Shown here piece after piece: positions 15,897-41,200 of a DNA stretch of 64,000 nt. Position 1 is the first letter of the stretch. Each line of letters opens with the position of its first letter. The notes below the pieces were generated by a model. That model made no database searches and was not told where the DNA came from. It was given only the letters and a program-made list of their open reading frames with translations. The position numbers and the translations under genes were made by a program. The stretch is from a virus, in IMG/VR virus record IMGVR_UViG_3300047089_000244, positions 64,001-128,000 of that record; one strand, given 5' to 3'.

Positions 15897-17534
15897 TTAG
15901 AGGCTTCCTGCGAAGTCATTCGCGGTTTGTACATCGTGAATCGTACCTCCGTCTTCTCCTCGGCTAACAGAGGATGGTTCTTCCTCCATAGGCTCCGTAG
16001 AACCAAAATCCCAGGTAGTTGGGGCATCTAGGCGCAGACTTGGATTGAGAGCCTTAAGCGCCATTTGAAGGCCCTCTACGTCGCCATCTGCATCTTCGAA
16101 GTCACGGTCAAGGCATCCTTGGTCCCGTACGGTGCCATTGGGGCGAATAACTAGGTGATGAGCATTTCCTGGCTGGGAATAGTTCTCGTCATCGCCCCAG
16201 ACATCAGGATGTGTGCGGTCGTCGGCCCATGTTTGAAGCGCTCCTGTATCTGGGAAATATAGCCCCTTGCCGGACTTTCCAAGTTCCCAAGGTGCCGCTA
16301 CAGCAAATCTTCCACAACTATCGCGCATACCACCTATTAGAGATGCGATTCGCGGCCACTCTATGGGTTGCCAGGCCCCGTTGCGCATTTCGCCCGGCTG
16401 GAGAGCCTCGGGAGGGATCACGCCTCGATATCCAACATGTTTACCTCGTGTAATTTGACGCTCTGTTTCTGAGGGAACATTACCAAATCCCATAGCCTCT
16501 GCCATTTGCCCTAGCGAATCATATCCTTTTTGTGGACTTACAAAACTATCAATTTTCTCATTAGGAAGCATATCATCCTCATCTGGATTAAGATGCTGGG
16601 GAGCAAGGTAAGCCGGATTGACTTTCAAGACAATCGGTTCTTCAGGAGGATTAGATTTCCGATTGACATCATCGAGTGCGCGATCCCAAGCATCTTTGGG
16701 ATTTTGTGCCATATAGACATGTCCTGGTCGAGGCATAAGCCACTGTTGATGTGCCGTATCGTAGGTTGACCCTCCGGCAATAGGGGAATCCCACGGATGC
16801 AATCCATGCTGCATGATTGACTCCAAACGAGCAGGGGTCGTGCCGTGATAAAGGCCATGCTCTCCTTTCTCTTGCCAATCGCGCCAATAGTCCTCACCAA
16901 CTGGCATAGCCACTCTCGCTTGAAAACTCCATATGCCCTGTGATGGATTGGTGCGCAAACGAGGATCTGCTGCTTCTGCCTGCGCCGCTACTTTACCATA
17001 GTTCTCCGGATGAGAAGACCAGCTATTGTCATCGAAGACGTTGAGCATCCCCTCTGGGGTGATCCCAAAAGCGGTATCGAACATGTCGTGGTGCTCATAA
17101 TGACCCGGTTCTCCGTTGATGCCAAAAGCCCTTTCGGCATATTCTGGATGTGTTGGCGAACCGTCTTGGTTTGGACCGACACCCCAGGTATGCACTGCGC
17201 CATCGTGAATGAGACCCTTTCCCCATTGACCAGGCTCCCATCCTAACTGATGTTGAGTAACCGATTGGAATCGCCACTTGTTAGTCGGCACGAGGCGTGG
17301 ATCGAGCTTATCGATGTCAGCAGGACCCTCATAGACTTTGCCCTCTGGGCCGATTTCGAATGCGTTATATTCGGTATAGGGATTGGTGTCATGAGCCCCA
17401 AGCGCCTGCTCTAGGTATTCCGGATGGTTCGGCGTTCCATCTTGACGATCAACATTCCAGGTGTGCGTCTCTCCCTTAGGAGTCACGATCCCCTTGCCGT
17501 GGTTGCCGGGAGTCCAATTGAGTACATGTCCCAT
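15897..17534 (-). CDS. modular protein: three WxPG-GKG-HTW repeats flanking an ART-fold (Tpt1/KptA-like) domain
   Basis: LYHGTTPARLESIMQHGLHP...HVYMA...IVLKVN...YRGVIPPEAL; repeats at aa 5-91, 97-206 and 414-512. Confidence 0.75.
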   Translation of the reverse strand: MGHVLNWTPGNHGKGIVTPKGETHTWNVDRQDGTPNHPEYLEQALGAHDTNPYTEYNAFEIGPEGKVYEGPADIDKLDPRLVPTNKWRFQSVTQHQLGWEPGQWGKGLIHDGAVHTWGVGPNQDGSPTHPEYAERAFGINGEPGHYEHHDMFDTAFGITPEGMLNVFDDNSWSSHPENYGKVAAQAEAADPRLRTNPSQGIWSFQARVAMPVGEDYWRDWQEKGEHGLYHGTTPARLESIMQHGLHPWDSPIAGGSTYDTAHQQWLMPRPGHVYMAQNPKDAWDRALDDVNRKSNPPEEPIVLKVNPAYLAPQHLNPDEDDMLPNEKIDSFVSPQKGYDSLGQMAEAMGFGNVPSETERQITRGKHVGYRGVIPPEALQPGEMRNGAWQPIEWPRIASLIGGMRDSCGRFAVAAPWELGKSGKGLYFPDTGALQTWADDRTHPDVWGDDENYSQPGNAHHLVIRPNGTVRDQGCLDRDFEDADGDVEGLQMALKALNPSLRLDAPTTWDFGSTEPMEEEPSSVSRGEDGGTIHDVQTANDFAGSL

Positions 17535-17560
17535 ACATATTAGGGTCTAGATCGCATCGC

Positions 17561-17590
17561 TTGACATGCCCTAGAGGGTTGTGCTACTCT
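17561..17590 (+). promoter_or_regulatory. sigmaA-type promoter
   Basis: TTGACA-18-TACTCT with TG extension. Confidence 0.7.
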
Positions 17591-37987: not shown

Positions 37988-38262
37988 GCGTTGGAGTGTA
38001 GCAGACCCTCTTTCTCGCGGAGCGTCTGCCCTGCATTGGTTCCCTTCGGGGGCTCCTTACCTAGCGACCGTGTACATCGCCAAGTAACCGGGCAGACGGC
38101 GCAATATAGAATCGGCGTACCAGAAGAACGCTGTTCATTTTCGCTCATGCGGCAGTTCGAGCAACCCAGGAATGCTGCCCCTAAGGGGACTACGAACTCT
38201 CCCTTAGCTTTCTTGTCGGCTTGATACTTACGTATTTCTAATTCACGGAGATTAGCACTCAT
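37981..38262 (-). CDS. small Cys-rich protein
   Basis: CSNC...CAVC..C; overlaps both neighbouring ORFs. Confidence 0.5.
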   Translation of the reverse strand: MSANLRELEIRKYQADKKAKGEFVVPLGAAFLGCSNCRMSENEQRSSGTPILYCAVCPVTWRCTRSLGKEPPKGTNAGQTLREKEGLLHSNAW

Positions 38263-41200
38263 GACTGAACCAATTCTAGGTCTTCTCGTTCCTTGCGCTT
38301 CTTACGAATCTCTTGTGGTGGCTTAGGCATAGCTATATCGCCACCCTCTAGATCGTCTTCGTGTTCGTCTTCGTCGGTAGCCCCTTCTGCTCGTGGCAAC
38401 CCACCCCAACTCTCGCTACTTGCGCCAGGGCTCTGCATATGCCAAACATGTTCTCGTTGCTGAAGACAACCAGGACAATCGCATGCTACACTGTAAGCAT
38501 GATCAACCCCAATGCCCTTCTGCTGGTCGCCTTCACCACGGTCGTAGGCGCTCTCCTTGGTTCCGTTCTTATCGGCGCTGCGGTAGGCCTCGCTATCGTG
38601 CTGATTGCCACCATCGTTAACTGAGCCCTCAGCTTTCATATAGTTGCGAGGTTGATCCTGCGGATAGCCGACCGGGTGACCTTCAGGGATTGACCATGAG
38701 TGATCACTGTTCTCCTCAGTGGGGTTGAGTCCATGTACAGGGCAGTCAAGCTTGTGCCCCTGATCACATGTACATCCCTCTTTCTCTGGATGAGGATTGC
38801 CTTGTGCTGGCTCTTGCATCGTGGTAGGGGGCATCATACGCGCGTCTGGATACTCGCGTGTATCCGATTGGTCTGCTCCGAAGTGCCAATCGGTATGTTC
38901 ACCTGATCGAAGACTCGGTACGGTCTGAAAGATGTGGTTAATGATGTCAGCCGGGACAGGGTGAGCCTTAGTATCGAGTCCACCGCGTGGTCGGATATTG
39001 AAGAAGTGCGCGCTTCCTTCGCCTAGCTGATATGGAGCATGGCTATCCATGTACTCCGCATGGTGCGGGGAACCTTGTACATTGACTGCCCATGTATGCA
39101 CGTCACCACTAGGCGTCACAAGGCCCTTGCCTGGGATACCCGAGCCTGGTAACCAAGCAAGTTGATGGCTGGCTTCCCTGAACGAGCGATACCCATCGTC
39201 TGCCATTTTCCCGTCAGGGCCGTCGCCCCATGTATGCTCGTCCCATTTGCCATAGCCATTAGGGGTAGCTTCCAAGTTATCCTCGAAGTCCTGCCAAGGC
39301 ATGGCGAACTCAGGAACAGAAGATGTAGGTATCACGCGCGGCTCTCCATCGATTCCCTCACCAACCGGCTTGCCTCGAAAGCCAACCACCCACCGATCTT
39401 GTGGGTCCCAACTCATATGACTCATGTATTCAGAGAGGTGATGGGGATTCCAGAACGATGAATACCCCGGCTTGCGATACTTCTCGCGCATAGTGTCAGA
39501 TATTCCATTGTCCTCGATCGGCACCGTCTCTGCGTGCTCGGTTCCCCACCAAGGCGCATCTGGATGATGCGCACGATAGTAGAGGCCGTTCTCCATCGGC
39601 AACGCCGTTAGCTGTTCGCCAGCTACTCTAGCGTACGCTGTCTGCCAGCTTTTGCTGCTCTCAGTAGGATCGGGTGAGTAACCATGAGCTTTGGCAAATT
39701 CGCGTAACTTGATAGAGCTTGGTTCCGTAATAGAAGCGTTGCCGTGACCAAGCGCGTTATTGATCGCCTGGTCGCCGGGATGTCCACTCAAAAAGAATGA
39801 GGCATGAGGATAGCCCGTAGGATCGCGCAAGCTCATCCATTGGTGATAGGGATACTGGCCTCCAAAGTTATCAATGGAGAAATCATCTAGAGTCTTATAA
39901 GGCTCGTTGGTGTACTCTGTTTCTCCATCGATTTCTCGTCCGGTCCCGCGAAGTCCTTTAGCCCAACAATTATGCATAAGCTGACCCTCCCGCTGACGAT
40001 CCTCTGGGGTCACGAGCTTATGAATTCGCCATTGATCAGGAAATTCATGAACCACTTGCGAAGTATCGGGACCCACTTGCTCAAGAGCCCGAGCCCGTTG
40101 AGGTTGAGTTAGCCCCCCTATGTGCTCGGGGAGATTCACAACTTCCTTCTCGATCTCCGACGGCTCATGCACCTTGAACTCACGAGCCCAGTCTTCCTCT
40201 AGATCGTCAGGCGCTCGATCGGTAGTCACATCCGTGTGCTTCTCAAGAAGCTCCTTCATGATGCCTATGCCTTTGGCATTATGGGAGTGGATGTTCACAC
40301 TCTTGGGCATATGCTTGCGGTGCTCATGCAACCAAATTACAAAGTCGCCGCCGCTCAGCGCATCTGGATTAATGACGACTTTACCCTCGTATTTGACTAT
40401 ACCCAAGTCATGATCAAGCGACATATGAGCGTAGTCATTATCCTTGGCGAGCTTTTTTGCTTCGCTTGCATCTTTGGCCCAATCCCAAGACTCATCAGGG
40501 GGATGTCGCGTATCGTCTAGCCAGAGTTTGTGCCTCGTAAAGGCTAGCCTAGACTGAAAATCCCAGTATTGCTCCTTGCCCTTGAATCCCACGTCCTTGA
40601 TACGAGGATCAGCCTGTTCTACGATATGGCGATAATCACGCGGGTCGTTTTCGCCATACTGATCTGGGCGTGGCTTATAGAATTTGACGCGACCTGCCTG
40701 AGAGATGTTGAAACATGTGTCCCAGAACGTCGTTGGCTGTCCTTCCCACTCGCCACCGTGGGGATCGTAGTCGCCGCCCTCATTAACCATACCTTTGGGA
40801 TGATTGAGCCCAAAGACCTTTTCAGCGTACTGAACATGGCTTGGTCTTCCGTCCTGACCGCTCGTAGGCCACGTATGTACATTGCCCTGAGGATCAAGCA
40901 TACCCTTGCCAGGGGTACCCGGCTCCCAGTTGAGTTGATTACCTTGATTATCAGAGACCTTTGTCTCTGCCCGCATCCAGGTGCGTGGAGCATCTGTGTG
41001 ATAGTCATAGCCCACGGGGCTAGATGGATCTGGGAAATCCAGAGAGTCATCATAAGTTGGTAGCGTCGGATGCAGACCGTGACATGGGCAATCCAACTTA
41101 TGGCCATCTTTGCATGTGCAATCCACATCAACGGGCTCACCATTTCGCTCTCGTAAAGCATTTGGCCATTGATCCTTTGGGTTCCAGCTATCAGCCACCT

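Follow-up and report, generated by a model that had tools for sequence, protein, structure and literature searches.

A repeated alpha+beta domain is the constant unit of large multidomain proteins in an uncultivated clade of large phages

Results

The window is a 64,000-nucleotide stretch of a 170-kb phage genome, in which an initial annotation had reported an unrecognised repeat in five copies across two proteins. All five copies are present where they had been placed, with differences of a few bases: three (A1, A2 and A3) in P0001, a 545-residue protein (15897-17534), and two (B1 and B2) in P0002, a 1390-residue polyvalent protein (38259-42431). Both genes, and all features of the window described below, lie on the minus strand, and all five copies are of the kind called type 1 here.

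Copy A1 (17262-17528; residues 3-91, with Lys14 and His37; HMM i-E 2e-32) begins at the N terminus of P0001 and is followed in tandem, after a gap of three residues, by copy A2 (16917-17252; residues 95-206, with Lys106 and His129). In copy A3 (15999-16301; residues 412-512, with Lys423 and His442), Q-T-W replaces H-T-W. All three were delimited by alignment and HMM. Between A2 and A3 lies the variable cargo of the protein, an ART-like domain with the motif LYHGT...IMQHGL...VY (16302-16916), which was assigned from weak matches: a profile of 25 homologues compared with PDB sequences hit Tpt1 (RNA 2'-phosphotransferase, E 6e-4) and DarT (E 2e-3), and Pfam gave a weak PARP match. Candidate junctions flank this cargo at 16908-16916 (R-V-A/M) and 16344-16352 (R-I-A/S). 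The protein ends in an acidic tail (TEPMEEEPS...GVQT..D[YF]AGSL-end; 15900-15998) that is nearly identical across 16 orthologues.

Among the P0001 orthologues the second module and the enzyme are exchanged, and the flanking repeats and the C-terminal tail are constant. P0024, from a close relative, retains copies 2 and 3 and the tail, and its ART domain and copy 1 have been lost; A2 is 75% identical to the equivalent P0024 copy, and A3 together with the tail is 65% identical. The protein can be read as a constant frame with a variable cargo.

P0002 combines its two copies with several other modules. From the N terminus, the order is a 2H/Acb1-like module (41832-42200; Pfam Acb1, 3e-7), an ART-like module (41217-41699), the first of two occurrences of a Zn-type Cys/His motif (41073-41120), copy B1 (40551-40940; residues 498-627, with Lys509 and His532; HMM i-E 8e-40), a cREC module (40242-40529; Pfam cREC_REC, 9e-18), a PcfJ-like module (about 39657-40199), a further module (39177-39629), copy B2 (38874-39167; residues 1089-1186, with Lys1102 and His1124; HMM i-E 3.5e-33) and the second Zn-type motif (38727-38774). 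The copies adjoin the Zn-type motif, cREC and the further module, and not directly the ART-like domain matched in P0001. In copy B1 the helix is followed by some 30 inserted residues, and S-R-L-A/F stands directly behind the copy (40542-40550); in P0002, [KRH]-x-A sites coincide with the predicted module borders. Each partner module of P0002 is also seen in 13-53 of the 168 proteins of the family described below.

Only 9 nucleotides upstream of P0002 ends a tail-fibre gene with a Collar domain (42441-43514; Pfam Collar, 9e-16; PHROG tail-fibre families). The order of a Collar gene followed by a repeat protein is also found in L011/L012, which encode the 4942-residue P0004, and in L007-L009, which encode the single-domain P0132. 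Of the latter three, only L007 has a Collar match on record; in L008 and L009 the upstream gene is truncated at the end of the contig. An Apyc1-like gene was seen near the repeat locus in L011.

The five copies align significantly with each other, with pairwise BLASTP E values down to 8e-14 at a database size fixed at 1e6. Six of the ten pairs fall between 8e-14 and 1e-4, and three pairs gave no reported match. Copy A3 is the most divergent and matches B2 only (E 0.046). The five-copy alignment contains 14 invariant columns, situated in the W..G..GKG stretch, at the G, T and W around [HQ]TW, at the histidine, in I...G, at a proline and in the terminal W.F. Compared with the close relative L010, the copies have a non-synonymous p-distance of 0.15 and saturated synonymous sites (0.72-0.78), which indicates that they are under purifying selection.

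A six-frame search of the window with an HMM built from the copies recovered these five and no further copy. The reported count of five copies in two proteins is too low: the genome has three such proteins with six copies between them, and the family as a whole has many members. The sixth copy was found by HMM outside the window (G000:C1:52567-52896, minus strand), within a frame of 1833 residues. This carrier is encoded just upstream of a 281-residue gene, a maturation protease (G000:C1:44864-47383), a 206-residue gene and the major head protein. The head genes were identified with PHROGs; the Pfam capsid and protease families PF03420, PF04586 and PF05065 gave no match in the genome. Inspection of the major head protein by eye revealed no obvious [KR]-x-A propeptide site.

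Among 1.84 billion protein representatives, the profile of the copies matched 388 clusters at E<=1e-3 and 165 at E<=1e-10. All 32 matches with a listed source are metagenomic, and none of these 32 carries a functional name. A search for loci related to that of P0001 found none among viral or genome contigs, and no cultured carrier phage was found: tblastn with P0001 and the 14-copy P0006 against 50,697 phage records gave no repeat match. In an uncultivated clade of large phages, the domain recurs as the constant building block of large proteins.

The family sample comprises 564-566 instances in 168 proteins. Every motif listed in the initial annotation is kept across 564 of them. Conservation is 99% at His37, and is similar at Trp7 (96%), Gly10 (95%), Gly13 (97%) and Trp26 (98%); position 14 is lysine in 93% and arginine in 7%, so that every instance has one or the other. 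In the C-terminal half, Ile60 (80%), Gly64 (98%), Pro86 (79%), Leu88 (77%), Trp96 (94%) and Phe98 (89%) are conserved. The fixed features of the domain are a glycine-rich lead-in to the first strand (W-x-P-G-x-x-G-K-G), a second strand with (H)TW, an invariant histidine that starts the first helix, an F-x-I-x-P-x-G hairpin, D-P-R-L and a closing W-x-F.

The number of type-1 copies reaches 28 per protein, and the histidine and the lysine are kept in all copies of these arrays. The largest protein is P0004, with 4942 residues. At the other extreme, 19 proteins, all from complete genes, consist of the domain only, in one to three copies each; the single-domain P0132 has 111 residues, the last of which are exactly W-G-F. 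Much of the giant proteins is filled by a distant relative of the domain, termed type 2, with an invariant histidine and the same W-x-F end. In the 34 giants that were examined, modules of the two types make up about half of the sequence, and in the 4942-residue protein up to 75%. The commonest partner is an ART-like module (42-53 of the 168 proteins), and most family proteins do not have it. The modules are acidic, with a median net charge of -8, which argues against DNA binding.

A motif [KRH]-x-A within eight residues after W-x-F follows 26% of type-1 and 34% of type-2 instances, compared with 6% of random 8-mers. It starts mostly at +2 or +3. Conversely, W-x-F precedes 155 of 521 [KR][TVILM]A sites. 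The motif is absent from tandem copies. The [KRH]-x-A behind the copies may be a protease site. A self-cleaving domain of the Nup98 or SEA type was rejected, since the residue after W-x-F is glycine, alanine or glutamine in more than half of the instances, which leaves no general nucleophile.

That the repeat belongs to no named family was borne out by searches of Pfam (Pfam-A 2025), NCBIfam (release 20), PHROGs (v4), PDB sequences, Foldseek databases (PDB and BFVD) and the ESM Atlas. All Pfam and PHROG matches of P0001 and P0002 lie outside the repeats, and NCBIfam gave nothing for the repeat. When 146 instances were scanned singly against Pfam at E<=10, the only recurring match was zf_UBZ, over 15 residues in 12 instances, and it is spurious, as the matched stretch has no cysteine. 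Identity with WGR, WWE or P-loop domains was rejected for want of a Pfam match. Profiles of both module types against PDB sequences returned artefacts only, namely designed beta-trefoils, through the I-x-P-D-G-x-V hairpin, and a RecA repeat fusion. Searches of the ESM Atlas by shape and by features yielded no usable neighbour (TM <= 0.48), and Foldseek found no match in PDB or BFVD at E<=1e-3. The copies represent an autonomous alpha+beta domain of about 100 residues that has no name in the databases searched.

The AlphaFold model of the type-1 module (copy A1) has a pLDDT of 88.4. It contains four clear strands (residues 12-17, 23-28, 59-61 and 66-68), and the type-2 model contains seven. In the type-1 model His37 starts helix 37-45, and Lys14 is situated near the start of strand 12-17. 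A prediction of self-association of two copies scored 0.01, which counts neither for nor against it.

The only recurring structural neighbour of the module is the human phosphohistidine phosphatase PHPT1 (2nmm_A). With VIA-align against 48,161 chains it is the top match for type 1 (Z 4.8, rmsd 2.6 Å over 70 residues) and for type 2 (Z 4.5, rmsd 4.0 Å over 82 residues, 17% identity; next matches Z 3.4-3.6), and both are weak, with Z scores below the level that VIA-align calls meaningful. The PHPT1/Janus fold has six strands and two flanking helices; in its active site His53 stands at a helix start and Lys21 on a strand, Arg78 and Ser94 surround the phosphate, and the phosphate is held by backbone NH groups at the helix start (PMC4817053). 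On the models, the module would share with PHPT1 an alpha+beta sandwich of similar size, a functionally central histidine that starts the first helix and a lysine on an early strand, and His37 and Lys14 would correspond to His53 and Lys21 in comparable elements. No conserved equivalent of Arg78 or Ser94 was identified. There is no detectable sequence relationship: PF05005 (Ocnus/Janus) gave nothing in the whole genome at E<=10 and is absent from the matches of the 146 instances. Type 1 also has fewer strands, and the acidic surface, the glycine-rich N-terminal lead-in, the W-x-F closing strand and the arrays are features of the module and not of PHPT1, which is solitary.

Discussion

The proteins described here resemble the polyvalent proteins of phages and conjugative elements, with their large polyvalent protein-associated domains (Iyer et al. 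2017, PMC5512222; Pfam LPD families). They are long and multidomain, stand in a late or virion context, and combine conflict enzymes of the ART, 2H and cREC types with many domains of unknown function. Several unrelated effector domains are present (Acb1/2H, cREC_REC, ART-like and PcfJ-like in P0002, ART-like in P0001), and the gene setting is that of the virion, with the Collar gene next to P0002 and the 1833-residue carrier beside the protease and major head protein. In contrast to polyvalent proteins, the module matches no Pfam family, LPD families included, reaches 28 copies, has a second related module, and also stands alone, often with a fixed [KR]-x-A junction behind it. Repeats of this kind were not found described in PMC5512222.

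In phage T4, a constant capsid-targeting sequence brings internal proteins into the head and is removed by the prohead protease. Head anchors of the MuF/SPP1 gp7 type are fused to effectors (PMC5512222). The system described here would follow the same logic, with a constant part and a variable cargo for which packaging and cleavage are proposed. The T4 sequence is a peptide of about ten residues and MuF an unrelated larger domain, whereas the constant part here is a folded domain of 100 residues in many copies.

We tentatively propose, with a probability of about 40%, that the domain is the constant, stoichiometric unit of processed polyproteins carried in the virion. Genes of 1 to 38 modules with variable enzymes (ART-like, 2H/Acb1, cREC, PcfJ-like and Nudix) would be expressed with the head and tail genes, and the modules would give the polyprotein its place in the particle. 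The [KR]-[TV]-A found directly behind W-x-F at many junctions would be the site of the maturation protease, which would cut modules and enzymes free, and the histidine, lysine and glycine-rich site of every copy would contact a partner or a phosphate-bearing ligand. Enzymes like the partners found here have been described in polyvalent effectors that are packaged in virions (PMC5512222, PMC9503650). A linkage to the virion is supported by the carrier in the head module and by the Collar genes before P0002, P0132 and P0004, although the latter adjacency may reflect operon order only. Against the proposal, a carrier with nothing to carry (P0132 and 18 others) needs a function of its own, the near-total conservation of histidine and lysine is more what one expects of a ligand or catalytic site than of a packing surface, and only a quarter to a third of the copies have the junction motif, which tandem copies do not have. 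The search for a cultured carrier, which found none, and the major head protein, in which no obvious [KR]-x-A site was seen by eye, also count against it.

The initial annotation had suggested a scaffold or capsid-targeting module, a small His-dependent enzyme or an amplified nucleotide-signal sponge. The evidence does no more than shift their weights. A pure capsid-targeting tag is weakened by the complete genes that encode the domain alone, and a plain enzyme by the arrays of up to 28 copies that all keep histidine and lysine; the link to the virion has gained from the gene context. Conservation of the histidine and the lysine is real, and the one neighbour that recurs in fold comparisons is a phosphatase that depends on a histidine.

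A sponge function is possible, if on balance doubtful. The glycine-rich loop, the lysine and the histidine of each module would bind one small phosphate-bearing molecule, for instance an ADP-ribose derivative or a nucleotide that serves as an immune signal, and arrays would multiply the capacity. A histidine at a helix N terminus together with G-x-x-G-K-G is typical anion-binding chemistry, and the module has both; in PHPT1, the nearest fold, the start of the equivalent helix binds phosphate through its backbone NH groups (PMC4817053). Retention of the site in every array copy is expected where each must bind, domain-only proteins exist, and nucleotide signals or derivatives of NAD are the targets of the Acb1-like 2H, cREC, Nudix and ART partners and of the Apyc1-like gene in L011. 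The phage sponges Tad1, Tad2 and Acb2 are small proteins that counter nucleotide signalling stoichiometrically, a conflict in which the Acb1-like partners also take part. However, no sequence or fold similarity to known sponges or nucleotide-binding families was found (Pfam; Foldseek PDB/BFVD), which a shared mode of action need not entail, and the known sponges are free homo-oligomers that bind at oligomer interfaces, not covalent arrays. We consider it unlikely that the module is a distant relative of Janus/PHPT1 that hydrolyses P-N or phosphoester bonds and uses the invariant histidine as general base. PHPT1 is the top match for two independently predicted, divergent modules, the order of elements agrees (strand, strand, His-started helix, strands), and the proposed pairing of His37 and Lys14 with His53 and Lys21 is in keeping with it; yet the low Z scores, the close type-2 runners-up, the empty Foldseek and PF05005 searches, the positively charged surface of PHPT1 as opposed to the acidic modules, and the 10-28 intact repeats per protein, unusual for enzymes, all count against it.

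An accessory role, in which the repeats give a neighbouring ADP-ribosyltransferase substrate recognition or regulation, would agree with the three copies that flank the ART-like domain of P0001 and with the frequency of this partner. It is made improbable by the family proteins without an ART-like module, which are the majority, by the domain-only proteins, by P0024, in which the repeats outlast the ART domain, and by the neighbours of the P0002 copies. As little weight is given to the idea that the modules are beads of an external fibre, or of another appendage with a purely structural role, whose genes accompany those of the tail fibres: a Collar gene precedes repeat genes in three lineages and the arrays of small globular units are very long, but the inserted enzymes have intracellular substrates, the alpha+beta fold with its conserved polar site is not of the Ig/FN3 type, and one carrier lies in the head module.

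A more speculative idea, which we rate as unlikely, is that the modules are new stoichiometric "sinks" on a PHPT1-like fold. Each copy would capture a phosphoryl or nucleotidyl group or be modified by one on its invariant histidine. Dozens of acceptor sites, injected or expressed together, would drain an immune signal of the host, which could be a nucleotide second messenger or a defence based on a His-Asp phosphorelay. The polyprotein and protease design would then supply many copies from one gene.

Large phages have giant multidomain proteins that are regarded as toolkits injected against host defences, and most of their sequence is unannotated. The module described here provides a unit worth naming for much of this dark sequence, and its family profile would improve the annotation of soil-phage metagenomes. 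With a confident model, an invariant His/Lys pair and a candidate cleavage motif, the build of these proteins, their loading, cutting and ligand binding become testable, as does the question whether viruses have a PHPT1-like fold.

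Repeat Copies in the Phage Genome

The source virus is a tailed phage whose genes encode a tail sheath, a major head protein, and a maturation protease as well as collagen-like and Collar-domain tail fibers. Its record is 169,966 bp long and rated complete, and the window covers bases 64001-128000. The five copies of the ~100-residue repeat domain (type-1 module) located by the initial annotation are found at the positions it reported, three (A1, A2, and A3) in the 545-aa protein P0001 (window 15897-17534, minus strand) and two (B1 and B2) in the 1390-aa polyvalent protein P0002 (window 38259-42431, minus strand). 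Their alignment has 14 invariant columns. The copies align significantly, with pairwise BLASTP E values down to 8e-14 (nominal database of 1e6 residues), and A3 is the most divergent copy and the sole borderline one. Across all six reading frames of the window, a profile of the five copies revealed no others. A sixth complete copy is situated elsewhere in the genome, at about residues 676-785 of an 1833-aa frame (G000:C1:49423-54921 in whole-genome coordinates), and closes with F-P-F, not W-x-F. The count of five copies in two proteins was thus slightly too low.

The domain had not been recognized as a named family, and searches of Pfam, PHROG, NCBIfam, PDB, Foldseek, and the ESM Atlas returned none. 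All Pfam and PHROG matches of P0001 and P0002 fall outside the repeats. A Pfam scan of 146 single instances at E<=10 gave only a spurious short zf_UBZ match (12/146), and the Janus/Ocnus Pfam profile had zero matches in the genome. NCBIfam contained no match to the repeat, the PDB sequence profile search matched nothing but designed beta-trefoils, at the level of a hairpin, and the ESM Atlas gave no useful neighbor.

Family Size and Conservation

A six-copy profile matched 388 clusters at E<=1e-3 in a set of 1.84 billion representative proteins; 165 of these reached E<=1e-10 and 41 reached E<=1e-30. In a word-indexed collection, all 32 matches with a listed source come from metagenome assemblies (JGI, ENA, and Logan), and none of the matches has a name beyond "hypothetical protein." Using tblastn against 50,697 deposited phage genomes, P0001 had no match, and the 14-copy metagenomic relative P0006 had no repeat match; its matches to Gordonia and Streptomyces phage genes involve a non-repeat segment only (residues 1368-1506, 33-38% identity to hypothetical proteins). 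Because this segment resembles proteins of Gordonia and Streptomyces phages, its sequence hints that the carriers infect Actinomycetota, probably soil-dwelling ones.

The 168 family proteins fetched contain 566 type-1 instances. Over 564 aligned instances, the most conserved positions are His at 37 (99%), Trp at 26 and Gly at 64 (98% each), Gly at 13 (97%), Trp at 7 (96%), Gly at 10 (95%), Trp at 96 (94%), Lys at 14 (93%, the rest being Arg), and Phe at 98 (89%). Compared with the close relative L010, the non-synonymous p-distance is 0.15, and synonymous sites are saturated. Copies at the same position across orthologues are 65-87% identical, whereas copies inside one protein are 26-48% identical, which indicates that the duplication is old and that every copy has been kept.

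Predicted Fold of the Type-1 Module

An AlphaFold model of P0001 residues 1-93, built with the 146-instance alignment, is confident (pLDDT 88.4, pTM 0.78). It contains a strand with G-K-G at its start (12-17), a strand that includes H-T-W (23-28), a helix with the invariant His at its start (37-45), a short helix followed by a hairpin (59-61/66-68), and a short helix ahead of D-P-R-L, after which comes the closing W-x-F. Foldseek comparison of the model with PDB and BFVD gave nothing at E<=1e-3. In an exhaustive alignment against 48,161 PDB representatives, human phosphohistidine phosphatase PHPT1 (2nmm_A) ranked first, with a Z score of 4.8 and an rmsd of 2.6 Å over 70 residues, followed by the ERH protein at 3.2; both Z scores are under the level that the tool treats as convincing. 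The PHPT1 fold consists of six strands and two helices; its general base, His53, is surrounded by Lys21, Arg78, and Ser94, and the phosphate is held by the backbone NH of His53 and that of Ala54 (PMC4817053). We infer that His37 and Lys14 of the module are in elements comparable to those of PHPT1.

A Second, Distantly Related Module

In the alignment of P0001 orthologues, the second position holds a type-1 copy, a different module of ~115 residues, or both. This type-2 module has the pattern P-F-x-Y-x-P ... V-Y-x-G-x-P-G-x-x-H-x-D ... W-x-F. An iterated search identified 283 instances in 94 of the 168 proteins, only one of which overlaps type 1, and none was detectable in the genome of this phage. 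Its His (100%), Trp (94%), and Phe (95%) are highly conserved. When the profiles of the two types are compared, the match has a probability of 68% and an E value of 4.6e-5, with His aligned on His and W-x-F on W-x-F. A separate AlphaFold model of type 2 (pLDDT 88.7, pTM 0.81) again retrieved PHPT1 first among the 48,161 chains (Z score 4.5, 82 residues aligned, 17% identity), with a small lead over ADF-H/cofilin-like folds (3.4-3.6). We read both types as one superfamily whose nearest known shape is a PHPT1-like alpha+beta sandwich; membership in the Janus family is no more than a possibility.

Protein Architecture and Cargo

The arrangement of the modules ranges from single domains to very large arrays. 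P0132 is a 111-aa domain-only protein, encoded by a gene that is complete within its contig, and its last residues are exactly W-G-F; it is one of 19 proteins made solely of one to three type-1 copies. At the other extreme is P0004, found on contigs of at least two samples, where 28 type-1 and 10 type-2 modules cover 75% of 4942 residues. Proteins of at least 1500 residues (n = 34) have a median of 11 modules and 53% coverage. A module is present at the protein start in 79 of 168 proteins, and 85 of 366 gaps between type-1 copies are no longer than 15 residues.

Segments between modules are mostly unannotated, with a Pfam match in 5 of 125; about a dozen match PHROG families, which are themselves unannotated, one family excepted. 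The recurrent partners are ART-like domains (42-53 of 168 proteins), PcfJ-like domains (36), a Cys/His motif (23), 2H/Acb1 (18), and cREC (13), and Nudix occurs in one protein. The profile of the central domain of P0001 has weak PDB matches to Tpt1 and DarT. In P0024, the L010 equivalent of P0001, copy 1 and the ART-like domain are lost, and copies 2 and 3 and the C-terminal tail are retained. Because the ART-like domain was dropped and these copies were kept, the modules are the constant part and the enzymes are optional.

P0002 has two copies of the Cys/His motif, C-x-C-x2-G-H-K-L-D-C-P-x-H-G-L (window 41073-41120 and 38727-38774, minus strand), which is mostly present twice per protein in its carriers. 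The motif resembles a small metal-binding module that accompanies the repeats. P0001 ends in a 33-residue tail (window 15900-15998, minus strand) with an acidic stretch and a terminal G-V-Q-T-x-x-D-[YF]-A-G-S-L. This tail is near-identical in 16 orthologues, persists where the ART domain is lost, and may act as a signal for sorting or cleavage.

Junction Motif and Gene Neighborhood

Within 8 residues past W-x-F, the motif [KRH]-x-A is present in 26% of the type-1 instances and 34% of those of type 2; its frequency among random 8-mers is 6%. Its usual starting points are +2 and +3 (for example, G-K-T-A, S-K-V-A, and Q-A-R-V-A). Across the family, 521 [KR][TVILM]A sites were counted, and W-x-F precedes 155 of them. 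The sites coincide with predicted module borders in P0002 and lie on both sides of the ART-like domain in P0001. As a sequence pattern, this fits cleavage by a maturation protease. The head maturation protease domain of this phage occupies about residues 96-257 of an 839-aa protein (G000:C1:44864-47383, minus strand), which also has a long extension.

P0002 begins 9 nucleotides past a Collar tail-fiber gene. The same order recurs with the single-domain P0132 and with P0004, in distant carriers whose Collar genes share 33% and 36% identity with that of the window. The 1833-aa carrier, encoded on the minus strand, is directly upstream of genes for a 281-aa protein, the maturation protease, a 206-aa protein, and the major head protein. 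Its sequence includes numerous C-x-x-C pairs, a long hydrophobic stretch rich in Gly and Ala, and regions rich in Pro and Gln. On contig L013, a 3033-aa module array is near homologues of two proteins of this phage, the 843-aa protein and the 1833-aa carrier, and adjoins the homologue of the latter, which is 30% identical. The 1833-aa carrier may be an ejection or pilot protein.

Downstream of P0002, with a 93-aa ORF between them, is a gene for an ATPase of the AAA type that begins with a BCS1 domain (window 36728-37987, minus strand; Pfam AAA 8e-20, BCS1_N 1e-6). BCS1-type ATPases transport folded proteins across membranes, and a link to polyprotein loading or export is conceivable. Elsewhere in the window are an L,D-transpeptidase (YkuD) domain protein amid the collagen-like fiber genes (44957-45580, minus strand) and a 1235-aa protein in which a YunG domain, a CCA-adding/poly(A) polymerase head, and an HD domain are fused (58399-62106, minus strand). 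On L011, the contig that encodes P0004, an Apyc1-like (anti-Pycsar) protein of the metallo-beta-lactamase fold is encoded at 5088-6014, ~4 kb upstream of the array.

Discussion

The type-1 module is a real, widespread, and unnamed domain under selection, with an invariant His and Lys, and it occurs alone or in very large arrays. Its genes are in virion gene neighborhoods, variable enzymes are inserted between copies, and the junction motif is recurrent. Polyvalent phage proteins with unannotated companion domains are a known kind (PMC5512222, PMC7824862, and PMC9503650). The literature and family libraries searched contained neither the type-1 module nor its type-2 sister, nor any case of their repetition with a fixed junction.

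The shape nearest to PHPT1 and the placement of His37 and Lys14 raise the reading that the module is a PHPT1-like hydrolase. Every copy in the arrays keeps the site, which points to a stoichiometric role, not catalysis, and we regard the hydrolase as unlikely. A small-molecule sponge, amplified in arrays that each time retain the site, is a possible but secondary reading. The frequent ART-like partner would suit an accessory of these enzymes; the existence of cargo-free genes shows that the module is useful by itself, and an ART accessory seems improbable. We give similarly little weight to an external structural bead, for which the position next to Collar tail-fiber genes might speak and against which the conserved His/Lys site counts.

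We favor, with a probability of roughly 40%, the reading that the module is the constant unit of processed virion polyproteins and that its conserved site is a binding site, because the site is intact in every array copy. The repeat proteins would be packaged in the virion and processed, and the conserved His/Lys site would provide one binding contact per copy.
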